Notes: generated from the letters alone by a model not told the origin. A DNA stretch of 64,000 nucleotides from Candidatus Latescibacterota bacterium (GCA_965261395.1 OZ253462.1:1312001-1376000); one strand, 5' to 3'. Counted from the stretch's first letter, positions 4,736-22,693 are shown. Numbers and translations: made by a program.

Positions 4736-4942
4736 ATGAAGGAGAGACCTGTGCCCACGCGTTTTACAGCCGTAATAACCAAGAGCGAAGATTTGCCTTT
4801 ATTCGTCGCTCGTTGCCCCCAGGTAGGCACGGTTAGCCAAGGAAAGACTGAGGAGGAAGCATTGAAAAACCTCAAAGAGGCTACCGAGCTGTACTTGGAA
4901 GAGGTCACAGATTCTTCACATCAGACTCTTCACCTTGCCTAG
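4736..4942 (+). CDS. HicB family antitoxin
   Basis: FVARCPQVGTVSQGKTEEEALKNLKEATELYLEE. Confidence 0.85.
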   Translation: MKERPVPTRFTAVITKSEDLPLFVARCPQVGTVSQGKTEEEALKNLKEATELYLEEVTDSSHQTLHLA

Positions 4943-5057
4943 CCTTCCCTCTGGGATCTCAGCTAGAAAAGCCCAGCGTGCTCTCGAGCGCTTGGGCTTT
5001 TATTTTGTCCGGCAGAAGGGCAGCCATATGGTACAGAACGCGCAAGCTACCGGCTGA
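4935..5057 (+). pseudogene. Truncated HicA toxin
   Basis: Not in the ORF track. TTG start gives MPSLPSGISARKAQRALERLGFYFVRQKGSHMV, then homology is lost and a stop follows. Confidence 0.75.
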
Positions 5058-5497
5058 ACAACGCGGAGCGATACCCACCACCTCCCGGTCCCGTCCCCCG
5101 ATCATCCAGAGCAAGGCACAAAGACGCCTTGCTCTTCTAACCCGGGCGACGCAAAAGGACGCGACGCCCTTCCCGAAAAATCTACCACACGCCTTCGCCG
5201 CACGTCCCCGAAGGCTTTGTTTCTACGAACCGAGCTATGATGTGGGTCGAGAGAGAGGCCCGCAAGATATGACCGAATTAGACCACCCCACAAGCCCCCG
5301 GCGTGTGGGGATTTTTCAACAGCCAAAGCATAAAAAAGGCGTTCTCGATTCGATGAGAACCGAGAACGCGATGTGTCAGGCCCGCAGAGCCTCGCAAGGT
5401 TGCGAGGCTTGACTACAGAGGCCCAATGTAAGCATCCGGGCGGGGAGGTCAAGGAAGCACTGGCGCGGCGACCCTCGTCGATTAGTCATGCGGTACT

Positions 5498-5735: not shown

Positions 5736-6630
5736 GAAGTGGTTTCATAACTTGATAGGGAGTCAGGTTTTTTCTTTTTTTCGGTCTTCTATTTTTTTTG
5801 ACCAGGAGTCCTGCCATGTCCCGCCATAGTTCCGAACTGACGGATACCCAGTGGTCGCCTATTGCTCCGCTGCTGCCGGAACCCCAAGCCTCCGCCAACG
5901 GGGGCCCCCAACCGATTCCCAACCGCCCGGTGTTTGAAGGCATTTTGTGGGTGCTCCGTAGTGGCGCACGCTGGAAAGATCTGCCTGAGCAATACCCCTC
6001 GCCCAGTACGTGCTGGCGTCGGCTGCGGGCTTGGGAAGCCGACGGGATCTGGCTAAAGGCGTGGCGGGCCTTGCTGCGACCACTCGATGCGCAAGGCCAA
6101 CTCGACTGGGCCGAAACCTTCGCCGATGGTAGTTTTGCCCCGGCCAAAAAAGGGGGCCTTGTGTCGGTAAAACCCCCCGTGGAAAGGGTCCGAAGTGGAT
6201 GGTGGTGGTCGACGGCCAAGGTCTTCCTCTGGGAAACTACCTGGACTCGGCGTCCTGTGCAGAAGTCACGTTGATTGAGCCCACGCTGGAGCGGGTGGCG
6301 ATCCCTCGACCCGGCCGCGGTCGGCCGCGGAAAAATCCGCGTCGGTTGATCTACGACAAAGCCGCCGATTCGGATCCGCTACGGACTCGATTGGCGCGAC
6401 GCGGGATTGAGTTGATCGGTCCCCATCGGAAAAATCGAAAGAAACCGCCGACGCAAGATGGACGACCCTTGCGCCGCTACAAGAGACGATGGAAAGTCGA
6501 ACGCACCTTCTCGTGGTGGGGCAATTTTCGACGGCTGGTGGTCCGATGGGAGTATCATATTCAGATGTATCAAGCCTTTGTCAATGTCGCCTGTCTGGTG
6601 ATCGTACTCAGACAGTTATGAAACCGCTTC
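5736..6630 (+). mobile_element. IS5 family element (IS427-like, two-ORF frameshift type)
   Basis: 17-bp IRs gaagtggtttcataact / agttatgaaaccgcttc (1 mismatch), flanked by TA on both sides. Confidence 0.9.
5816..6621 (+). CDS. IS5 transposase, OrfA + OrfB via -1 frameshift
   Basis: LTDTQW...GILWVLRSGARWKDLP; slippery AAAAAAGGGGG at 6146-6156; OrfB is in the -1 frame with DKAADSD and YKRRWKVERTF. Confidence 0.88.
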
Positions 6631-12414: not shown

Positions 12415-14010
12415 CTATTCCCGATAGCCGTGCAGTGCAATTCGATCCAGCAGGATAACCTGGTCTCTGTCGCCAAACAGGAACGCCACCCGGACATCTC
12501 TTATATCCCCGCCGGTATGCTTGTACTCAATCGTATATTCCCTTTTTGCGTTCGAGATTGTCACCGGCGTGGATGTCCAAAACCCATCGCTCGAACCGGA
12601 GACGTCGGCCAATCGCACCTTGAGAGTTCCCATCCCACCCACGGACTTGGCCAGGAAGGATATTTTATAAAGCCTTCCCTTTCTCAGGGAGATCAGGTAC
12701 CTACCCGGAGGACTCCACTCTCTCTTGGAGGTTTCCTGATAGATTTCGGCACGGTCCGATTTTTTGATTTCCACTTTGAGTGCAGCTAGGCCGCTCAGGC
12801 CTGCACTCCTTGCCACGGACGTCTGCACGGACCCTTCGCCGGTCCAGTGATCGGTTCCGCTGCTGAACTCCGAATTGATGAGTGGCGACATAGGCGGGGG
12901 CGGGGGGGCCGTGACTTCCGTAAGAATATCAAGTGCGTTCTGGTTCCAACCGTCCTCAGTATTGAGAATGTTGAAGGCCCATTGGTTGTTGAAACCTGCA
13001 CAATAATACATCCAGCCGATGTTGTGTTTCTTGCATTCGTCGGCTACAAACCCAATATAGGCCTTGAAGTCTTCAACCGTATGGCAGGGCGGCACCCAGG
13101 CACCCCATTCGCTCAGAAGCAGAGGCTTCCTCCATTTCTTCGACCATGCCACCGAGTGTGACATCTGCTCTCTCACTTCATCCTTCCACCCAGGAACTTC
13201 GTCTAGCCCCGAGGTCCCATGCGTGAACTTGTGAGGTTGATACATGTGGAAGAGGCCGATGATATTGGTGTCGTCCTCAAACCCTGAGCCGTCTTCCAGC
13301 CTGTACGTCAGATATTCCGGTGTGACGAATTCCTCGAGTTCACGACCCCCGTTAAAGCCAGGTCCGCCGATTCCGAGCGTGCGGTCTGGGTTGGTCTTCC
13401 TGATGATGGGGATCGCCGCGTTGAGGTATTCCATAACGGTCTTGCCGTCCTTTATCCCCTGAATCCCTCCCGGTTCCACTATCAGCCCCGCCGGTTCGTT
13501 CCAAAGTTCAAAGACAAGGCTGCCGGGATAGTCCTTGTAGTACTTCGCAATTCTATCCCAAATTGCGACAAACTCCTGTATGCCCTCTTTCGGCTTTGAT
13601 GCCCATTGACCGCTCCCCCACAAGCAGATCACGACAGCAAGGTCTCGGTCAAACGCGTCCTGTATCCTGGTTTTGTAGATAGCAGGATCTTCCCCAGCGC
13701 CAACGAAGAAGCGAATGCTTTGGAATCCCGCTGCCTTGACGGCATCATATTGGGCAGGATCATACAACACCTTTTCGGGTGGACCACCTTCAAGACGGGA
13801 GACATCCACGTTGATACCTTTGCCGATCCGCTCGAGCATGATCTCCCCTTTGCTCAACTTCGTCGTTGATTCGTAACTGTACAGTTCCCCCAGTAGGGGA
13901 AAGCCCAGAATGAGCGCTATTGCGATTTTACGGAAGCGGAGTATGCTGTTTTTGCACCGGCAAAAGCGCCGGGGCCGCCAGGTCAGTGAGGGGCGATTCT
14001 TTTCTTCCAT
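12415..14010 (-). CDS. Glycoside hydrolase family 5 enzyme with C-terminal CBM4/9-like domain
   Basis: Acid/base VFELWNEP, FHMYQPH, nucleophile LLLSEWG; start uncertain (14010 or 13840). Confidence 0.85.
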   Translation of the reverse strand: MEEKNRPSLTWRPRRFCRCKNSILRFRKIAIALILGFPLLGELYSYESTTKLSKGEIMLERIGKGINVDVSRLEGGPPEKVLYDPAQYDAVKAAGFQSIRFFVGAGEDPAIYKTRIQDAFDRDLAVVICLWGSGQWASKPKEGIQEFVAIWDRIAKYYKDYPGSLVFELWNEPAGLIVEPGGIQGIKDGKTVMEYLNAAIPIIRKTNPDRTLGIGGPGFNGGRELEEFVTPEYLTYRLEDGSGFEDDTNIIGLFHMYQPHKFTHGTSGLDEVPGWKDEVREQMSHSVAWSKKWRKPLLLSEWGAWVPPCHTVEDFKAYIGFVADECKKHNIGWMYYCAGFNNQWAFNILNTEDGWNQNALDILTEVTAPPPPPMSPLINSEFSSGTDHWTGEGSVQTSVARSAGLSGLAALKVEIKKSDRAEIYQETSKREWSPPGRYLISLRKGRLYKISFLAKSVGGMGTLKVRLADVSGSSDGFWTSTPVTISNAKREYTIEYKHTGGDIRDVRVAFLFGDRDQVILLDRIALHGYRE

Positions 14011-14013
14011 TTC

Positions 14014-14041
14014 CTCTAACGGTTTGCCCGTTGACGACCCC
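14014..14041 (-). repeat. attC-like half-site remnant directly before the GH5 gene
   Basis: Minus strand ggggt-cgtcaacgggcaaacc-GTTAGAG aligns with gagtt-cgtgagcgggcagccc-GTTAGAT of the 20121 site, with the same 16-nt arm. Confidence 0.5.
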
Positions 14042-14168
14042 GTGTGATCATGAGATGTGCTCCAATTTGCGTCCATTTCGTCCACCACCTGCACCGCTAT
14101 AACCCAGTCGTTTTTGTCGGGAATGGGAAAGTCGGCGAGGGGAGCGTGCCCGGTCTGATATTCCCCGT

Positions 14169-16340
14169 TCAGTATGCTACAGCGACGGACTGCAGGCGGA
14201 TCTCACTGCCCTTATCCGTCTCTACTTCCACCCGCGCCAGATAGATGCCAGGGCCGACCAGCTGTCCGGCTCCATCCCGACCGTCCCAGCGGGCCGTATG
14301 GCGCCCCGCGGCCTGAGCCTCTGGCTGCGCCTGCCATACCCGCCGTCCGTCCAGGGCATAGATGCCGACCTTTACCTCGGACGCCTGCTGCACCCGGAAC
14401 AAGGTATACTGGATGGATAACTGGTCGTTGACGCCGTCCCCCTGAGGGGTAAAAGCGCGGCTCCCCACCTCGAGATCCCCCAGAACTCCCCTTGCCGAGG
14501 AGGCCGACGCCACCACCACCAGCTGGTTGGAACCAAGCTCCTCGCTGACATCACCGCCTTCGACCCGCTGCAACAAGCTCTGTTCCCCGCGGTTGAAGAC
14601 CTCCCCTCCGAACTCGCCGGCCTCGTCGTAGAGCACCGTTTCCAGCCCAATGCGCAGCCGCTGATCGCCCTCCGGACTCAAGCGGCGGGGCAAAAATACA
14701 ACAAAACCGCTTTCCTCGTTCACGATGCTGTCCGGTTCCACGGCGCCCAGGGGCTCACCTATCTCCAGCCAGCCGAACTCCGCTTCCGCCGGCGTCATGA
14801 CCCGCACGACGTCGAAGCCGGTGCGATCCGCGCTGGAAAATTCAACGCCAATATCGTATACGAACGACTTTTTCTCGCCCGCCGGCACGCGCACTCGCCC
14901 GCCCTGCGGCTGGTGATCTTCCTCCAGGACCACCTCGCCCACGACCCGATCCGCCAACAGCGGCGCGATCTCGATCTGCAGCGAATCCAGCCGGGCAAAG
15001 TCAAAGAACGCATCCGTCTCCAGCTGCACCCGCAGCTGAAAGTAGCGCCCCCACGGCAGGCGCGGGTGCTGTCCCGACTCCTCGAGTGGCACCGACCAGA
15101 AACTCCAGTTTTTCAGATCCTCGACCACCGGCCCTCGGAATCCCACCGCCGGCACCGTGGTGCCGCGCGCCTCCAGTCTAGATATGGAACTGATCAAGGT
15201 CGCCCTCGGCACGGAGGAAGTCAGCCGTTCCCACTGTTTCTTGGTCACCTCCACGTGGGCTCCCAGATCGTCAAAGCCGAAGTAGGCCGTCGGAGTGCCG
15301 TCGCGACCCGTCCTGATCTCCACCTGGACGCGAACCGGACCGTCCTCGAGGGCGACCAACTGCTCCCCGTCCTTGCGCCACTTGCTCACCTCGAAGACCA
15401 CTCGCCCGAAGTTGACCTCCCGCCCCAGGTCCACTATCTGCGACTCCCAGGTCGCCGTAGGCGCAAAACCCCGGCCGTAGACCTCCATCTCCGCATAAGC
15501 CGACTGGACGACGATCGGCTGATCGTCCAAAGTGACTCCGTCGGGGACTTCCAGCAGGCGCAAATAGCGCAAATTCTGCAGCGGGAAGCGGACCTCGGTG
15601 ACGCTGTCGCGGTTGGCTTCGCGGTAGGCTAGCTGATTTTCCAGCGGGCAGCAGAAGCCCGCCCCGCGCCATCTGAAGCCCCGCTCCATCTCCTCTTCCA
15701 TTATACCTCCCTCGTCCTGGCGGGCTGTCAGGCTGAATGATTTGAGGACATAGTTGGGACGAAAGGGCTGGTCGCTGTCGGGGTTCACCCCCTCGGGAGG
15801 GTAGAACACAAAGCGCTCCACCGGCACCTGCGCGCCCATATCTATCGTGTAATAGAAAGACGACCCCGATGGTGGGCGGCTGCGCCGGTCGGCGACCTCG
15901 TCCCTGCGCTCGACGTAGGTGGCGGGATCGCCGTCGACGAAGACGAGGAGGTCGGCCTGGTACAAAATGCCATAATTCCCCAGGTTCTCGTCGCGGCTCT
16001 TCAATAGAAAGTTGCCCTGTCCCAGCCACAAACGCGGATGACCCGAGTGGTAAACCGGGTCGAAGGTGAACCTGAAGGGCTGCCAGGGTCCCAACCGAGG
16101 CAAGAGGTTCTCGTCCGGCTTGAGTTCGAAAGGCTGGAGCGCCCCGGCGGCGGTCGAGTCGTCCGTCATCAGGCTGAAATCCGCTACTTCCGTCCAGGAA
16201 ACGCCGCCCTCTCCTCCGAGCCGCCACCAATTTTCTTGGGCCGCCCCATGGCTGCAAAACCCTGCAATCCCACACAGCACGGCAAAGGCCAAAATCGCCA
16301 CTTTCGCGTTTATGCGCACCCGAACCTCAGGAATCCACAA
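14169..16340 (-). CDS. Secreted protein with C-terminal FlgD Ig-like domain (paralog of 9916-12207)
   Basis: Signal-peptide-like N-terminus, DGDPAT, NWSFWS, FTPQGDGVND...WDGRDGAGQLVGPGIY; start uncertain. Confidence 0.8.
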   Translation of the reverse strand: MWIPEVRVRINAKVAILAFAVLCGIAGFCSHGAAQENWWRLGGEGGVSWTEVADFSLMTDDSTAAGALQPFELKPDENLLPRLGPWQPFRFTFDPVYHSGHPRLWLGQGNFLLKSRDENLGNYGILYQADLLVFVDGDPATYVERRDEVADRRSRPPSGSSFYYTIDMGAQVPVERFVFYPPEGVNPDSDQPFRPNYVLKSFSLTARQDEGGIMEEEMERGFRWRGAGFCCPLENQLAYREANRDSVTEVRFPLQNLRYLRLLEVPDGVTLDDQPIVVQSAYAEMEVYGRGFAPTATWESQIVDLGREVNFGRVVFEVSKWRKDGEQLVALEDGPVRVQVEIRTGRDGTPTAYFGFDDLGAHVEVTKKQWERLTSSVPRATLISSISRLEARGTTVPAVGFRGPVVEDLKNWSFWSVPLEESGQHPRLPWGRYFQLRVQLETDAFFDFARLDSLQIEIAPLLADRVVGEVVLEEDHQPQGGRVRVPAGEKKSFVYDIGVEFSSADRTGFDVVRVMTPAEAEFGWLEIGEPLGAVEPDSIVNEESGFVVFLPRRLSPEGDQRLRIGLETVLYDEAGEFGGEVFNRGEQSLLQRVEGGDVSEELGSNQLVVVASASSARGVLGDLEVGSRAFTPQGDGVNDQLSIQYTLFRVQQASEVKVGIYALDGRRVWQAQPEAQAAGRHTARWDGRDGAGQLVGPGIYLARVEVETDKGSEIRLQSVAVAY

Positions 16341-17322
16341 GGCTTTTTAATCCACTTTCCAAGTCATCCAGCCATTGCGGCGTTTTGGGGTGAAAGGCTC
16401 CCAACACTTCCCAGAACCAGCACAAACCGGCGCCCATGGTGGCTTGTCTGACTTTAAGGTACGTCTCATCTGGTTCTATCCGCACTCCACCTGCCTCCGC
16501 ATACCCAGACCAAAACTCCTGCGGATAGTGATCGCGGCCATAAATTTCTTGAGGTTCTCGGGTAAACTCTGCTGCGACATGCAGTTGTTCATGTAGAAGG
16601 TCGCCAGTCGCTCCGTTCTCAAAATCGTAAATGCCGACTATATGGCCATCATCATCAACCAAAAGATTGTGTATAGTTGCATCTCCCCATAGAAGCCCTT
16701 GAGGACTCGGATTCGGCACGACATCAATCTTGTCCAGAAGATCTTCGATAATGGGCAACTTGGCTTGACAATCCTCTGGCAGGTCGGCTACCAAGTCCTG
16801 ATTGTAAAGGAGCTTTCTCCGTATGTCTTCTCGCCATTGGGTCACATCCTGCACGGGCAGAAGACCGTCGGATACTCTCTGTTCATTGATGGCAGCGACC
16901 ACTGAGCCAAATTCTTTGAGCAGGCGACACCGCCGATCATCGCTAGTACTGGGCATCTCGAAAAAGTCTCGTCCTTGAGTACCGGGGAGCAGACTAGAAA
17001 TCAGATAAGGATATCCGAACGCATCGGTGTCCTCGCATAATACACTGATCTCCGGGACGGGCAGAGTGGTTGTATCGCGTAACAATGCGGTAATATTGAA
17101 ATCGACCGCTAGCGAGAAGGCTTTTCGATACTTGATCTTGATCACATAGCTGCCGTCGCAACACACTGCCTTGTAGACACAGTTGGTTGGATTTGCTTCA
17201 AGTTCAGTCCATTCGATAACCGAGCCTAGCCCCTGTCTATCAAAAGCCACTGCTCCCTGCTCAGCAGTAAAGGTCGGCTTTGCCTTGGAGGCTTCTATAA
17301 ATGCTTGCTTGCTGATCGCCAA
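16327..17322 (-). CDS. APH/choline-kinase family phosphotransferase (putative cassette 4)
   Basis: YVIK, LPVPEI, WGDATIHNLLV...GIYDFE (HGD..N / DFE kinase motifs). Confidence 0.8.
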   Translation of the reverse strand: MAISKQAFIEASKAKPTFTAEQGAVAFDRQGLGSVIEWTELEANPTNCVYKAVCCDGSYVIKIKYRKAFSLAVDFNITALLRDTTTLPVPEISVLCEDTDAFGYPYLISSLLPGTQGRDFFEMPSTSDDRRCRLLKEFGSVVAAINEQRVSDGLLPVQDVTQWREDIRRKLLYNQDLVADLPEDCQAKLPIIEDLLDKIDVVPNPSPQGLLWGDATIHNLLVDDDGHIVGIYDFENGATGDLLHEQLHVAAEFTREPQEIYGRDHYPQEFWSGYAEAGGVRIEPDETYLKVRQATMGAGLCWFWEVLGAFHPKTPQWLDDLESGLKSLVDS

Positions 17323-17358
17323 ATCTACGCTCTGATATACTGTAACTTTCTTGATGTG

Positions 17359-17901
17359 CTAACTGATGTGCACAAGGATCTCATTTTTCGCGTAACGGTT
17401 GGTGCACTTGTGAACTTGCTGCAAGCAAGTTAGGTCGAGGGGCGCAGGCCCGAGCCACAAGTGCTGCTGTAAGACGTGGGACATAAAAATAAAGATGAAC
17501 AGACCTTCTTTCCCATTTATGATTTCCAACGGATCTGAGTCCCAGTGCCATCCCGTCGGAATATTCCACATATCGGGGGATTCAGGCATCGTGTGGAGCA
17601 AGGTGCCCCAGTGGGTGGGTGATTTCCAGCTAGGACCTAGGAGCTGGGTGATCGCATATGTGATCTTCTGGTCGCCAATATTCCAAAGGTCTCGGTTCGC
17701 TTGCAGTATCTTGATGAGTCCTTTTGTCGGGCGATTCCAGGTTGAGGAATCTTCGCGATCGAAGCCGTATCTCTGCTCAAGTATTTCCCATATGTACGTC
17801 ATCACGCGGTGCGTAAGTGTGCGATCAAAAGCCGATTCGAGGCGGACGTACCCGTTCAGATGGAAGCGTTCAATGTCCTCTTGAGAGAGAATTTGATTCA
17901 T
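17359..17901 (-). pseudogene. 3'-truncated PhyH family dioxygenase (putative cassette 3)
   Basis: LSQEDIERFHLNGYVRL, GWHWD (HxD motif); homology stops near 17472 where the frame runs into the attC-like site, so the distal His motif is absent. Confidence 0.75.
17390..17475 (-). repeat. attC-like site 3 (inverse core damaged)
   Basis: gtcttac-agca-gcacttgtg...aacttgcttgcagcaagtt-cacaagtgc-accaacc-GTTACGC; 9-bp stem plus the shared internal hairpin. Confidence 0.65.
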
Positions 17902-17931
17902 CGATGAAGTCACATTTCCTTGGGTATTTTC

Positions 17932-18021
17932 GGCTAACGTCTTCACGATTTGCGAACCCGCGCAGCGGGTTGGCGTAGCCCAAGGCGCGTATGCGCCGCA
18001 GCGCAAAACGCTGTGTTAGAT
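17932..18021 (-). repeat. attC-like site 2
   Basis: ATCTAAC-acag-cgttttgcg...aacccgctgcgcgggtt-cgcaaatcg-tgaagac-GTTAGCC; 90 bp, starting 35 bp after a stop codon. Confidence 0.8.
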
Positions 18022-18344
18022 GAAGTGAAGTCTTCATCCTTATATCACAAAATTATTAGCCTATTGCGTAATCACCATTTGATACCAAATCAAGTTGAGG
18101 CATTCTGTCTACTATCAGAGTTTGAGTTATCATATACTCCAACGCTTCAGAGTCACTATTGAAATATTCACTTTCTTTCTCCTGAACGATATCTCCAATA
18201 TCGTCATATATCCAGTGAAAAAAGCCATCGGTTAATTCCACTTTTTTACCTTCAAAAAACAGACATACATTAACTTGCCTCTGATTGGAACGGCCTGTTA
18301 TTTGAGGGAGAAAGCTGATTACAGCACTAATGCGATGGCCTTTA

Positions 18345-19276
18345 GAAGCCGTCTGAAAACTATATTTTTTCTATTTGATCCGTTTGAGCAGCAAGTGGAT
18401 CATAGCAATCTGGATCAAGGCTTCGCTATGGTGGGTCAACACCTCATAATCTCGGGCATGTCGGCGAAAATTCATCAACCACGCAAACGTGCGCTCGACG
18501 ACCCAACGGCGTGGTAACACCTCAAAGCCGGGGCCTTGTTTGGCGACGACTTCCAAGTCTATTTTGTGCGTCTTTTTTACGTTAGCCACCCACGTTCGGA
18601 TCGGATCGCCTCGATAGCCGCCATCGCCCCACAGTTTGCGTAACCGGGCTACGCCGGAGGCCCCCAAGCGGGTCAACACCTGCTTGAGGCCGTCCCGATC
18701 CTCTACATCGGCGGCGGTGACCACCACCTGTCTAAGCAAGCCCGAGGTGTCGACCAACAGATGACGCTTGCGCCCCTTGACCTTTTTTCCGGCGTCATAA
18801 CCGGTTGTTTTACCATGGGTTGCCGTCTTGATCGTCTGACTATCGACTACGCCAGCCGACGGCGTTGGAGCCCGTCCGTTGAGGCGGCGTTCCCGCTGGG
18901 TGAGTCGATCCAATACCTGCGGCCAGACCCCTTGTAGACTCCAGCGACGAAAGTAATCATACACCGTTTTCCACGGTCCAAAACAAGAAGGCAACAAAGC
19001 CCAAGGACAACCGGTCTTGGTCAGATACAAAAGGCCGTTGACGATCTGGCGTCGATCCCGCGGTGGCCGACCCGGACCGTTCGGCTGCCATGTCGAAGCC
19101 GGCAGCAACGGTTCGATCCGACGCCATTGCACATCGGTTACATCGGTGGCATATTGCCTACTAGGCGTACTCATCATACGAGCCTTTCTGTTCAGATTTT
19201 GTCGCGAAACCTGAATATGGCTCGATGAGTACGCCGATTCAAATACCGGCTACAGCAAGGGTTTTCAGACGGCTTC
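18345..19276 (-). mobile_element. IS5 family element (IS1031-like), 932 bp
   Basis: IRs gaagccgtctgaaaac / gttttcagacggcttc; TTA duplication at 18342-18344 and 19277-19279. Confidence 0.95.
18371..19177 (-). CDS. IS5 family transposase
   Basis: Same motifs as 6736-7539; protein identical to 56708-57514. Confidence 0.95.
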   Translation of the reverse strand: MMSTPSRQYATDVTDVQWRRIEPLLPASTWQPNGPGRPPRDRRQIVNGLLYLTKTGCPWALLPSCFGPWKTVYDYFRRWSLQGVWPQVLDRLTQRERRLNGRAPTPSAGVVDSQTIKTATHGKTTGYDAGKKVKGRKRHLLVDTSGLLRQVVVTAADVEDRDGLKQVLTRLGASGVARLRKLWGDGGYRGDPIRTWVANVKKTHKIDLEVVAKQGPGFEVLPRRWVVERTFAWLMNFRRHARDYEVLTHHSEALIQIAMIHLLLKRIK

Positions 19277-19386
19277 TTAGCAGTGGTGTTGTATACCTCC
19301 ACATATCCGACTCCTTTTTGGCCTCTTTCTGATGCTCGTTCCCATTCATAATTCATTGTATTTTCTCCATATTTACGGAATTGCCA

Positions 19387-20043
19387 TTATTTGGTCATAG
19401 AAGACTCTGTATTCGACTGGATCATTTCGGCTATTGTAGCCCATTCTTGATATAGTTCGGTTAAGTTTAACCTTTCTAACGTTTCATCTTTTTTATATTT
19501 ATGATGCTCGTCAGGATCACCAAATGTCATCTTACTTAGGTCCTTCTCAAAAAAATCGAATGCAATTTTCTCTAGTTGGTGCGCCATATCGATAAAGTCT
19601 GACCGAATGATACGACCAATCTCAGGAAATAGATCGGCAGGGGCTGGCCCGATAAGCATAGATAGGTTTAGCGTATAGTCTTGTATAAAATTGAGTTCAC
19701 GGCTTACAGGCTTTGTTAGCCACGCAGAATAGGTCGCAGCCACTTCTCTATGCTGAATATGCCAAGAGTAAAATTCCTCAGGACTCATGAAGAACTGTGG
19801 CGTTCGGGCAAGTTCTGATTCAGACTCCTGATACTCCAACGACCTCATATGTCTCATTGGAGCAACCAGCTTAAAAATTGCCTCATGGGCTTCGATTCGC
19901 CGATCCAGCACCTTTTCCCGTAGCCGAAGTTGCAACTCCTTCTCTTTTAATCTTGAATTTGCAAAGAAGGTGAACATTGAGCCCAACAAAACTCCTCCAA
20001 GGGCGAATACGGCGGTTATATTCTTCGCTAGAAGTTCATACAT
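19387..20043 (-). CDS. Hypothetical protein with N-terminal transmembrane helix (putative cassette 2)
   Basis: AT-rich 218-aa ORF; ITAVFALGGVLLGSMFTFF followed by a charged helix. Confidence 0.75.
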   Translation of the reverse strand: MYELLAKNITAVFALGGVLLGSMFTFFANSRLKEKELQLRLREKVLDRRIEAHEAIFKLVAPMRHMRSLEYQESESELARTPQFFMSPEEFYSWHIQHREVAATYSAWLTKPVSRELNFIQDYTLNLSMLIGPAPADLFPEIGRIIRSDFIDMAHQLEKIAFDFFEKDLSKMTFGDPDEHHKYKKDETLERLNLTELYQEWATIAEMIQSNTESSMTK

Positions 20044-20120
20044 AACCCATAAACCTGTTCGTTCATAGAATGGTGTTCTTATGGCAATTTATCTGTGTAG
20101 ATCTTTATTTTTTTTATTTC

Positions 20121-20205
20121 ATCTAACGGGCTGCCCGCTCACGAACTCGCGTAGCGAGTTGGGCGGAGGCCCGAATGGGCTGTAGCCGTGGGCGGGTTGT
20201 TAGAG
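20121..20205 (-). repeat. attC-like site 1
   Basis: CTCTAAC-aa-cccgcccacg...aactcgctacgcgagtt-cgtgagcggg-cagccc-GTTAGAT; 85-bp GC-rich island in AT-rich DNA, 37 bp after a stop codon. Confidence 0.8.
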
Positions 20206-20241
20206 GATGTGGGACAATTTAGGGCGATGTCTAAGAGAAGA

Positions 20242-22257
20242 TCATATCCCTAGCTTATGAAAGAAAATTTGATTACGCATTTTTGCATCTTTTAGCACTT
20301 TATCCCAACTAATCACTTCTATATAGAGCTTTGTATTTTCGTGCCAATTAAACCAGCCTAAACGATCGGGCATAGGTTTGAAATCCTTTTCTCGCCTAAG
20401 CCATTCTTCAACCTTAGGAGTTAAATCACAAACAACATATCCATAGAATGGGGTATTTTCCTCGACCAGCATTTTACGACCTTCAGGTGTCTTATATTTC
20501 CCATCGCGAATATTGTTAACGTAGCGAATGACTTGCTGGACCGGATCTTCTTTTGAAGATGGATTTACAAAATCATCTCTCTCCGGTTTTTTAAATTCAA
20601 AAATTGTTACAGGATTACTTGCTTCATTATCTCCACGGAAGAGGATACGCTTATTATAAACAAGAAGGTCAGGACGCTCGGAACCTTTGCCATTAAGCGG
20701 CAGATCGGATGATACATAGTTCGTGAAGTTCAGGCGTTCATCTATGATCCAGAGATTGTGATCTTCGAATGAAGTGACATCTGTGTCACCTTTTCGCGGA
20801 AAAATAACATCATGAACTATGCCCTCAGATGAATATTCCCCAGATTCGTCTACCTGAAGGCTTTTTCCAAAGATGTCTAGGATATTACGTCGAAGTGCAA
20901 TGTAGTGGATCAAGTCATTCTTGCTATTTCCTGATATTTTGCTGACGATTTCTGCGACATCTTTCTGTCGAGCTTCTAGATTTCCTTCCTTGTTTAGGAG
21001 TTGCGTGACATCTTTCTTCAGTTGCGTCTCTTGTCTGAATTTTTCTTGGTGTAAACGACTTTCAATCTCTTCGTTCGATGGATTGTAGGGCATCTTAGCC
21101 AAGTCTATAGCCTCAAGTATGTCCTTATGCCACGGCGCTTCTTCTTCCACATATGCCTGGACACTTACCCTCTTCTTTTCTTGACGAATAGCAACGTCTG
21201 AACCAACCGCATTCTTGGCGATTTCAGCAGATCTCGCTTCAATCTCGATCTGTGATATACCGAATTGAAGATCCCTGTCCATTTGGAATTCGAAGCTGCC
21301 ACGCTCTAGCGATACATTATTGTCTAAGTAAGAGCTGAATACGTAGGCTTTTACAATATAATTTCTGTCACGATTGACTTCTCCATTGCCATTATTATCG
21401 TAAAAATCTTCGCTGAACTCTGGTATGTATTTGTCTATAACCGATCCAGACACCTCTCTCTTATGTGCGACGAGGCTAATTCTGCTTCTCTGATTCCTTG
21501 GATAATACAATTTAAAAACTCTAACGATAAACTCTTCTATCGTTTCGTCATTATTACTGCTTTGCAGTGTGAAGGTGCTTTCTGATACTGGAACTTCTTC
21601 AATGACAGACGACAATTCGTTATTGAAGAAATCATTAAGTCGAATTGAGCCTGACCTGTCTTCCTCAGACAATATCACCTCAGGACAGATATAGTCTTGA
21701 GTGATAAAGTATGGGAGAAGTTTCTCGACGATATTTCTGGCTATCGTATTGAGTCTTTTGTCAATTGATCTTCCTTTTTTGAGATTTTTCAGATGAATGA
21801 TAGTTCGTGATGCTTTATCTGAGGAGTCTGATATTTTTTCATTAATGATAATATCAGTATCCTTACCCATGTCGAATGCGCGATGCTTGTAAATGCCATT
21901 GTCTTGGTATACGCTTTCCACATGGAGGTCATCAAAATATTTCAGGCAAGTAAATCGACCAAACCCTTTACCACCATCCTCGATTCTAAGGTCTGTATAT
22001 AATGTATCAAATGACCATCGATTTTCGTCTGTGAAGCCGATGCCATTATCGACTATTTCAAAACTACGGACATCTGACAAAGAACCATCCATTTCAAGCT
22101 GCTCAGACCGGAGAACTTTTATTTCAATTTTTCCATCTTGGCCGCCGCGGCTTTCAATTGCCTGTATTGCATTGACAACAACCTCAACAATCGATGTATA
22201 AACAGTCGTATTCGCTCTGATATTTTCAACCGCTCTCTTGATATTTACTTTGCTCAT
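20242..22257 (-). CDS. GHKL (HATPase_c) ATPase fused to a C-terminal PD-(D/E)XK-like nuclease (putative cassette 1)
   Basis: EVVVNAIQA, DNGIGF, GGKGFGRF; C-terminal RPDLL...IFEFKKP...PVQQVIRY. Confidence 0.8.
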   Translation of the reverse strand: MSKVNIKRAVENIRANTTVYTSIVEVVVNAIQAIESRGGQDGKIEIKVLRSEQLEMDGSLSDVRSFEIVDNGIGFTDENRWSFDTLYTDLRIEDGGKGFGRFTCLKYFDDLHVESVYQDNGIYKHRAFDMGKDTDIIINEKISDSSDKASRTIIHLKNLKKGRSIDKRLNTIARNIVEKLLPYFITQDYICPEVILSEEDRSGSIRLNDFFNNELSSVIEEVPVSESTFTLQSSNNDETIEEFIVRVFKLYYPRNQRSRISLVAHKREVSGSVIDKYIPEFSEDFYDNNGNGEVNRDRNYIVKAYVFSSYLDNNVSLERGSFEFQMDRDLQFGISQIEIEARSAEIAKNAVGSDVAIRQEKKRVSVQAYVEEEAPWHKDILEAIDLAKMPYNPSNEEIESRLHQEKFRQETQLKKDVTQLLNKEGNLEARQKDVAEIVSKISGNSKNDLIHYIALRRNILDIFGKSLQVDESGEYSSEGIVHDVIFPRKGDTDVTSFEDHNLWIIDERLNFTNYVSSDLPLNGKGSERPDLLVYNKRILFRGDNEASNPVTIFEFKKPERDDFVNPSSKEDPVQQVIRYVNNIRDGKYKTPEGRKMLVEENTPFYGYVVCDLTPKVEEWLRREKDFKPMPDRLGWFNWHENTKLYIEVISWDKVLKDAKMRNQIFFHKLGI

Positions 22258-22353
22258 AGCAGACCTACTTTCTTAAATCGATATTGATGTGCTAAGAGAT
22301 TTCTTGTGCCATGACGCCGCTGCTTACAGCTAAGACATGCGGCTTCCCATGTC

Positions 22354-22419
22354 CTCTAACTACTGTATTCCCGACGTACGTCGTCTAACTCACTTAAAGT
22401 AAGGGGTTAGACGACGTAC
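22354..22419 (-). promoter_or_regulatory. attI-like recombination site
   Basis: Minus strand cgggaatacagtaG|TTAGAGG with no attC body, next to a perfect 14-bp IR gtacgtcgtctaac (22376-22389) / gttagacgacgtac (22406-22419) that holds two more GTTAGAC cores. Confidence 0.55.
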
Positions 22420-22581
22420 ATCAAAGACTGATTTCTGGCCCCGTAGAATTCGCAAGCATTTATCTGTCAGTAATCTTAAAATTATGTTCGCATAAGTCCC
22501 ACCCGATAGCGCTCCTTGGCCAGGCGCAGATTCTCCTACGCCAGTTCCACTGTGCGCTGAGAAACAAAAACAAGAGGATAA

Positions 22582-22610
22582 AAAGAAAGCCCCTGAAAAG
22601 TCAGGGGCTT
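22582..22610 (-). terminator. Intrinsic terminator of tRNA-Val
   Basis: aagcccctga-cttt-tcaggggctt followed by a U-rich tail on the minus strand. Confidence 0.85.
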
Positions 22611-22616
22611 AGAAGA

Positions 22617-22693
22617 TGGTGGGCGATACTAGACTTGAACTAGTGACCTCCTGCATGTCAAGCAGGCGCTCTAGCCAGCTGAGCTAATCGCCC
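22617..22693 (-). tRNA. tRNA-Val(GAC)
   Basis: gggcgat acceptor stem, anticodon arm cctgc-ttGACat-gcagg, T-loop ttcaagt, encoded CCA. Confidence 0.97.

Follow-up and report, generated by a model that had tools for sequence, protein, structure and literature searches.

A recombinase-less, integron-type cassette array beside tRNA-Val in Candidatus Latescibacterota, probably the frozen remnant of an ancestral chromosomal platform

Introduction

Sedentary chromosomal integrons, such as those of Vibrio, carry attC sites that are similar to one another and typical of the species, and their cassette content differs among related species, the cassettes closest to attI being the most variable. In integrons the crossover falls between the G and the TT of the core, with the result that the first bases of each cassette complement the inverse core of the attC that belongs to it. 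Clusters of attC sites lacking an integron-integrase (CALINs) have been described as well; according to excerpts of the paper concerned, integrase loss is among their proposed origins, intI pseudogenes lie near only 15 of 279 CALINs, and the commonness of CALINs in genomes without IntI is surprising (Cury et al., 2016; PMC4889954). An additional domain is treated as defining for integron integrases in the part of another study that deals with them (PMC9668308). Here we examine a 64,000-nucleotide stretch of DNA (the window; positions 1312001-1376000 of a single-contig genome of 6.55 Mb) from Candidatus Latescibacterota, an uncultured phylum, associated with sponges and the marine environment, on whose integrons a literature search, judged by title and abstract, found no report. 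Beside a tRNA-Val gene, the window holds an array of co-oriented cassettes, read on the minus strand and separated by attC-type sites. A preliminary description, made from the sequence alone, had proposed an integrase-less, integron-type cassette array at this place, and the sites, the complementarity of the cassette ends and the cassette-level differences among relatives bear this out. Taken alone, the window is an ordinary orphan cassette array. We argue that the region 14000-22360 is probably the decayed, recombinase-less remnant of an ancestral chromosomal integron-type platform beside tRNA-Val, and one that is most likely frozen.

Results

The array holds two intact attC-type sites (A and B), a third (C) without its 5' core, one degenerate remnant and one site that has been deleted (Table 1). 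The three palindromes, the complementary unit ends and the 14-bp inverted repeat reported in the preliminary description are all present. Its limit at 16327, however, was drawn too short, since covariance-model sites and alignments with relatives take the array to ~14000, and its third palindrome (site C), although of the attC type, has lost a genuine inverse core through an internal deletion of ~370 bp. The palindrome ends fit the consensus RYYYAAC / GTTRRRY (CTCTAAC / GTTAGAT in A; ATCTAAC / GTTAGCC in B), and TAAC and GTTA are near-invariant among 19 aligned sites, C retaining the core only. Starting from the three window sites, an iterated nhmmer search converged at 27 matches with E <= 1, 20 of them included, in about ten genome clusters, and a covariance model, R1, was built from 19 complete genomic sites and used to score the window with filters off. 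Because RNAalifold, run on the raw MAFFT alignment, gave only three pairs, the structure was drawn by hand and then tested. From the outside inwards, it has an R stem (TAAC/GTTA), an internal loop that is asymmetric, an L stem of 10 bp and three hairpins. Paired cells amount to 79.8% in the 19-site alignment, compared with 30-41% when the partners are slid by 1-3 columns; compensatory changes are seen in 19 of 30 pairs and covariation in all 10 pairs of the L stem, and none of 500 shuffles reached the observed values. Building such a model and scanning the genome with it, as the preliminary description had proposed, uncovers more sites: at least 22 R1 matches at E <= 0.1 (150 of ~3584 candidates scored) in ~10 small clusters, site B having the top score in the genome among the candidates scored. 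About nine clusters or single sites lie outside the window (L012-L021; 337-339, 571-573, 592-598, 1491, 1776-1779, 2753-2760, 2864, 5804-5814 and 6192 kb), all of them on the plus strand, in contrast to the window array, and with no recombinase nearby.

Further regularities emerge from 97 sites of this genome and its relatives, aligned to the model. The internal loop has 3 nt on its 5' side in 90 of the 97, and 6 nt (76 sites) or 5 nt (21 sites) on its 3' side; canonical extrahelical bases were sought in the sites and none identified, the conserved asymmetric loop being present instead. The R stem is ~16 bp long, and within it, in 28 of 35 matched cassettes, the A at position +10 of the cassette start faces a base of the C side, making an A.C mismatch on the top strand and, on the bottom one, a G.T wobble. 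Of 96 sites, 77 fold more stably as the bottom strand. The ATG of many cassette open reading frames (ORFs) lies ~10 nt past GTTA, within a conserved core extension, GTTAnnnGAAATGGGA (for example, window 14008-14020). The purine-rich core may serve these ORFs as a ribosome-binding site and, because cassette genes begin ~10 nt after the core, the recombination site would double as a translation signal.

The hallmark of a cassette is scored here as the match of the three variable bases after GTTA with the complement of the three before TAAC; 96 of the 97 sites were used, one being left out owing to a gap in an anchor column. All three bases match those of the next site downstream in 35 of 64 cases, those of the site's own other arm in 6 of 96, and those of all other pairings in 387 of 9056 (4%). 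Most of the adjacent pairs that fail span over 2 kb, and a site may be missing between them. Complementarity of start and end extends over 14 of 16 bases in unit 1 of the window and over 10 of 10 in unit 2, whose start, GTTAGATGAA, pairs with TTCATCTAAC throughout; counted at aligned positions, the match is 10/12 from the bare core that opens the array to site A, and 9/12 from A to B. From site B to site C, none of the three variable bases match in the window, versus all three in the undeleted homologue at the related locus L028, because the ~370-bp deletion took the inverse core of the attC of cassette 3. These results bear on the idea that the palindromes are repetitive extragenic palindromic (REP)-like elements, miniature transposable elements or terminators, with no cassette role. 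In its favor, the sites are GC-rich hairpins that follow genes, at ~22 places in the genome. They occur in clusters, however, with one orientation per cluster; it is the start of the preceding unit, and not a site's own other arm, with which the outer variable bases pair; and relatives have such sites linked with a recombinase gene and an attI-like site. Moreover, a random distribution and own-arm complementarity were both tested for and neither was found, and we regard an origin of this kind as exceedingly improbable.

A search with PF00589 detected no tyrosine recombinase in the window, in agreement with the preliminary description. Of four PF00589 matches in the genome, three exceed the cut-off and the fourth, at 23.9 bits, does not; there is no integron integrase, the best TIGR02249 score being 82 bits against a cut-off of 265. 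Using as queries the recombinases linked to such arrays in relatives (see below), tblastn returned only three clear genomic recombinases, all Xer-like and 24-38% identical; the best-matching one is XerD-like and adjoins uvrC. Thus, neither a cognate recombinase nor a remnant of one was found in the 6.55 Mb contig with TIGR02249, PF00589 or tblastn.

In relatives, R1 sites adjoin a different, IntI-like tyrosine recombinase at eight of ten recombinase loci, the two without sites being contigs of 2.5 and 9.5 kb. The gene is divergent from the array, as in classical integrons, in five genomes (G050, G052, G054, G055 and G056) and reads towards the array in three (G030, G040 and G047). The array-linked recombinases score 206-240 bits with TIGR02249 (cut-off 265) and 207-235 bits with NF040815 ("site-specific tyrosine recombinase/integron integrase"), have Phage_int_SAM_4 and Phage_integrase domains and, when aligned with two canonical IntI proteins of the same family, lack the IntI-specific insertion. 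Mobilization by IntI, as first proposed, is not supported in that form and calls for revision, because the relatives' recombinase falls below the TIGR02249 cut-off and is without that insertion. Homologous proteins are numerous (at least 7143 at E <= 1e-30 among 8000 candidates scored), under the source names XerD, tyrosine recombinase and integron integrase. In a metagenomic set of 80 contigs with homologues of 42-58% identity (one being a 94% fragment), all 40 R1 matches (E <= 0.1) are on the recombinase strand; where the downstream flank reaches at least 4 kb, 9 of 17 contigs have a site downstream of the gene, and a site lies upstream in 1 of 23. No insertion of more than 13 residues occurs in the 80 homologues. 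We infer that the IntI-like enzyme of the relatives is the cognate recombinase of these sites.

Canonical IntI, with a TIGR02249 score above the cut-off, is encoded in 9 of 76 genomes of the bacterial family and in none of the 31 of the genus. It was considered as the cognate enzyme and rejected: there is no R1 site around the gene in G046, G047 and G081 (~19-20 kb on each side) or in G074 and G026 (less, at contig ends), nor in five shorter loci. A split IntI in G014, in two frames, was likewise rejected as an IntI of the genus; the one near-miss in the genus, it lies on a 2.4-kb contig that is not syntenic with the genome studied here, its flank matches that genome at just 70% over ~400 bases, and it may be foreign DNA. 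Relatives from another genus have large arrays of the same type as the window's (G046, C2:5-36 kb and C3:289-363 kb; G047, C1:487-534 kb; 52 and 19 scored matches, respectively), at distances of tens of kb from the canonical IntI genes of the same genomes.

At the tRNA-proximal end of the array stands a bare core, flanked on its tRNA side by ~140 bases that are kept at 85-96% in seven relatives' loci; homology with these seven stops at 22346-22357, that is, at GTTA. Different cassettes follow the bare core in the window and at loci L029 and L048. The motif TCGG(G/T)AATAC..TA, directly before GTTA, is common to the bare core and to G030, G040 and G016, where the 16 bases that precede GTTA, at the same offset, are TTCGGGAATACCGTAA, TTCGGTAATACCATA and TTCGTATAATACCA, respectively, and where the motif lies just downstream of a recombinase gene oriented towards the array. 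The conserved boundary, the varied cassettes and the shared motif make it plausible that the bare core is an attI, and the earlier statement that the array keeps its attI is tenable at that strength. The crossover would fall between 22360 and 22359. The neighboring 14-bp inverted repeat is kept at L022, L027, L029 and L048, and R1 gives a faint match over the bare core and the repeat together (22340-22428; 11.5 bits, E 0.89 over the window). Possibly, the repeat is a recombinase-binding element of attI, or else a collapsed attC.

Between the tRNA gene and the attI-like site, the window has a mosaic leader whose breakpoints differ among relatives. At the equivalent position, between tRNA-Val and the array and on the cassette strand, four relatives' loci carry fragments of an array-type recombinase gene as detected by tblastn, from the middle of the protein in L024 and L038 and from its C-terminus in L031 and L033 (identity up to 62%, E down to 9e-8). 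The window leader has no significant tblastn match to an array-type recombinase, and a conserved stretch, "..LRLAKERY..", is without assignment. Likening the window leader to the attI of the divergent type (inverted repeat, then CAAGCA and GTTA) was tried and rejected, as only chance words of 9-10 bases are shared. In the five genomes with a divergent recombinase gene (L124-L128), that attI region lies ~250 nt upstream of the recombinase start and consists of a perfect 10-bp inverted repeat, TATGCGAACC..GGTTCGCATA, followed by CAAGCA and then GTTA; several recombinase genes of this type are apparently damaged, the one in G055 by a stop and those in G050 and G052 by altered C-termini.

We searched 27 related loci (L022-L048), among them 20 orthologous tRNA-Val loci whose orthology was set by a flanking oxidoreductase, 90-97% identical. 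Homology with all of the orthologous loci runs from ~22578 onward. They have 0-8 sites each in the 10 kb beside tRNA-Val (at least one in 12 of the 20), always in the orientation of the window, and differ in cassette content; comparing cassette order at this tRNA gene, another proposal of the preliminary description, thus shows content that varies, with breakpoints at the GTTA core. The cassette with the APH-family gene recurs at 97% identity at L022, L026, L028, L031 and L032, in a block that reaches as far as the core of site C (17397-17399); different attCs stand before it at L022 and L028 and in the runs X1 and X2, which, like X15, cover assembled contigs from other samples, not raw reads. 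Another cassette stands after the bare core at L029 and after a tRNA-adjacent attC at L032. Those distal cassettes that are shared have diverged to the same extent as the flanks (93-98% versus 90-98%), and this fits vertical inheritance with differential loss. A joint in an X15 contig, 18018>22357, is not interpretable, its shorter side being 30 letters and the intervening letters not known. At L036 (8444-9328), a gene next to tRNA-Val encodes a different and fairly complete tyrosine recombinase, 26% identical to the array type. This locus lacks attC-type sites, and the enzyme may be the integrase of an ordinary island that uses the same tRNA.

The array is within a low-GC block (0.37-0.52, versus 0.58-0.69 around it) of co-oriented minus-strand genes that extends from directly 3' of the tRNA gene to a GC-rich flank. 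This block, the recombinase fragments by the tRNA in relatives and the more complete recombinase of L036 are all features of a genomic island inserted at tRNA-Val by an ordinary phage-type integrase, with the palindromes as unrelated repeats. What varies among the loci, however, is the single cassette, bounded at GTTA cores, rather than a whole island; the fragments are closest to the array-type recombinase; and the locus alignments reveal no second tRNA 3' end at the distal end, although no dedicated repeat search was made. An island of this sort is therefore very unlikely.

The preliminary description had further suggested that the array is serviced in trans, that is, still active through a recombinase encoded elsewhere in the genome, extrachromosomal or transient. 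The intact state of the attI-like core and of sites A and B would be in line with this, as would the alternative cassette junctions at 17397 in population contigs and the finding that R1 sites persist in 22 of the 31 genomes of the genus while at most one (G016) keeps the array-type recombinase gene. Moreover, cassettes 1 and 2, the two closest to the attI-like core, are found at none of the 20 orthologous loci, a pattern expected of recent insertions at attI. The 6.55 Mb contig has neither a cognate nor a canonical integrase, however, three of the five cassette 3' sites are damaged, an insertion sequence (IS) is fixed in cassette 2 in this genome, and the distal cassettes have diverged like the flanks. 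We consider service in trans unlikely, and unsupported, because the genome contains no integrase, cognate recombinase or remnant thereof. Several points nonetheless weigh against a frozen remnant. The uniqueness of cassettes 1 and 2, together with the intact A, B and attI-like core, would also fit recent acquisition and a recent source of recombinase, and the alternative attCs before the APH cassette in contigs from other samples may reflect a turnover that is ongoing in the population. Marker genes put the completeness of the genome at 95%, contamination being 8%, and a plasmid-borne recombinase would escape a single-contig assembly. The attI assignment is based on a 10-base motif shared at the same offset and on patterns of conservation. 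Finally, the array qualifies as a CALIN, with three strong sites within 3 kb and no tyrosine recombinase in the window, under a lineage-specific model and not that of IntegronFinder.

The cassettes and neighboring features are listed in Table 1. The protein of cassette 1, which is absent from all 27 related loci, scores 24.6 bits with Pfam HATPase_c, under the cut-off, and matches atlas clusters named "ATP-binding protein", of ~670 residues; no PADLOC or NCBIfam match was obtained for the proteins of cassettes 1-4. An allele of cassette 2 free of the IS, and otherwise with 0 mismatches, occurs in X1, where a contig joint, 18341>19277, skips 935 bases. The summed contig depth over the element is high in all four runs and fits a multi-copy element, although the depths pool several organisms; a copy at ~2758.9 kb of the genome (L018) has an end that directly adjoins a truncated attC. 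In cassette 3, window positions 17464-17986 and 17393-17476 correspond to 4897-5420 and 4444-4528 of L028, with an overlap of 13 bases; the full-length homologue at L028 scores 25.3 bits with Pfam PhyH (cut-off 22), whereas the window ORF has no Pfam match. The APH cassette retains its own attC at L022, L025 and L026, but in the window and at L023 ~170 bp are lost at its end, attC included. At L025 and L022, the gene for the type IX secretion system (T9SS)-type protein has its start codon immediately behind the attC core of the APH cassette; several relatives lack this gene or have it truncated. In the window, a deletion at ~16302-16307 (window 16302-16340) gave the gene an N-terminus that is new relative to L025 and L022, with a GTG start near 16320. 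The ATG within the degenerate remnant is likely the start of the GH5 gene, which is either the last cassette or part of the distal flank; the covariance-model search of the window found no attC-type site after it, and at L037 the GH5 gene directly abuts the tRNA-Val leader. The hairpin and T-run next to the tRNA gene, kept in relatives, probably form its terminator, as judged from their sequence.

Table 1. Features of the cassette array and its surroundings (window coordinates)
Feature	Position	Strand	Description
GH5 cellulase gene with carbohydrate-binding module	12415..14010	-	Pfam; GC 0.53-0.55, versus 0.62-0.69 beyond
Degenerate attC remnant	14000..14079	-	19.5 bits, E 0.008 over the window; 3' half and core GTTAGAGGAAATG kept
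Cassette 5 (probable)	14169..16340	-	723-aa secreted protein, T9SS-type C-terminal domain; Pfam FlgD_ig, CHU_C
Cassette 4	16306..17395	-	APH-family phosphotransferase, ORF 16327-17322; Pfam APH 62 bits; own attC deleted
Site C, own inverse core lost	17376..17488	-	58.7 bits; L boxes and core GTTACGC kept
Cassette 3	17397..17937	-	Truncated PhyH-family gene; ~370 bp gone, including gene 3' end and attC inverse core
Site B, intact	17918..18037	-	120.1 bits; inverse core TTCATCTAAC 18021-18012; core GTTAGCC from 17938
Cassette 2	17939..20126	-	218-aa ORF 19387-20043 and small IS-split ORF (19192-19356, 18056-18241); no family match
IS5-family IS, 935 bp, within cassette 2	18342..19276	-	Transposase 18371-19177; DDE_Tnp_1, DUF4096; NCBIfam IS5 239 bits
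Site A, intact	20107..20221	-	79.6 bits; inverse core TCCCACATCCTCTAAC 20214-20199; core GTTAGAT from 20127
Cassette 1	20128..22359	-	671-aa GHKL-type ATP-binding protein, ORF 20242-22257
attI-like core, CGTCGGGAATACAGTA then GTTA	22357..22376	-	Motif comparison and conservation boundary; bare core GTTAGAGGACATGGGA at 22360-22345
Perfect 14-bp inverted repeat	22376..22419	.	Arms 22376-22389 / 22406-22419, containing GTCTAAC / GTTAGAC; hairpin -23 kcal/mol
Mosaic leader, tRNA to attI-like site	22420..22575	-	Breakpoints differ among relatives
Hairpin and T-run directly 3' of tRNA-Val	22588..22612	-	Read in sequence
tRNA-Val (GAC), conserved proximal flank	22617..22693	-	ARAGORN

Discussion

The array is a CALIN, and in that respect of a known kind, possibly within an undescribed integron variant. 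In the ancestor of the genus, the layout would have been tRNA-Val, a tyrosine recombinase gene reading towards the array, an attI-like site and co-oriented cassettes with folded attC-type sites, presumably single-stranded substrates for recombination. Cassettes would have been inserted and excised by site-specific recombination between the G and the TT of the GTTA core. The recombinase gene would then have decayed independently in the descendants. In this genome it is gone altogether; the attI-like core and two intact attCs are still there, the other sites having been hit by deletions and cassette 2 by an IS. It is because the recombinase is gone, sites are damaged and an IS lies in cassette 2 that the array is most likely frozen, and only the arrival of a compatible recombinase in the cell would set it moving. 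The tRNA-Val locus of the congeners, with its recombinase fragments and varied cassettes, represents a clear case of a CALIN arising through integrase loss.

A wider proposal, which we put forward tentatively and at slightly less than even chances, is that integrons include a widespread, undescribed branch, to which these sites belong and whose integrase is without the additional domain held necessary for attC recombination. In such a branch, the folded site may be read through the 3 x 6 nt loop and the G.T / A.C position in the extended outer stem, the same stem also carrying the ribosome-binding site and start codon of the cassette. A literature search, with subscription journals and supplements outside its scope, came upon no account of cassette arrays whose serving integrase lacks the additional domain, and, as far as that search shows, the link of the array to an insertion-less, IntI-like recombinase is undescribed. 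An enzyme without the domain bears on the evolution of integron integrases from Xer-like ancestors (compare the portion of PMC4792948 that treats it), as well as on the reasons for the abundance of CALINs in genomes that lack IntI. If the proposal is true, part of the many "integrase-less" CALINs of genome surveys would be no orphans, but would be served, or once have been served, by an enzyme thrown out by current integron finders.

How, then, does the locus compare with described systems? As to the enzyme, the relatives' recombinases are like canonical IntI in having TIGR02249 as their best or second-best family, Phage_int_SAM_4 and the catalytic residues, and unlike it in being without the insertion of ~26-31 residues and ~10 further residues. 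A complete integron, with an intI that has the additional domain beside the array, is present in neither the window nor the genome. In G030, G040, G047 and the metagenomic contigs, the recombinase, attI and cassettes lie on one strand, as in the reverse-orientation integrons of Spirochaetota and in archaea with attI downstream of intI, judging by the sections of PMC9668308 that describe them; the integrases of those integrons, in contrast to the array-linked enzymes here, carry the additional domain. All of the traits listed above for sedentary chromosomal integrons (mutually similar, species-typical sites, a chromosomal location, and content that differs among relatives and most so next to attI) are found here too, but the arrays are short (1-5 sites) and scattered over ~10 loci, the genome has no integrase, and the relatives' enzyme is without the IntI additional domain. 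The closest likeness in overall form is to the CALINs as outlined in excerpts of Cury et al. (2016): at least two co-oriented attC-type sites with no integrase nearby, in a genome without IntI, making up a small array of cassettes of unknown function. Unlike the CALINs of those excerpts, the present array retains an attI-like site, and its origin can be traced through the recombinase fragments of its congeners.

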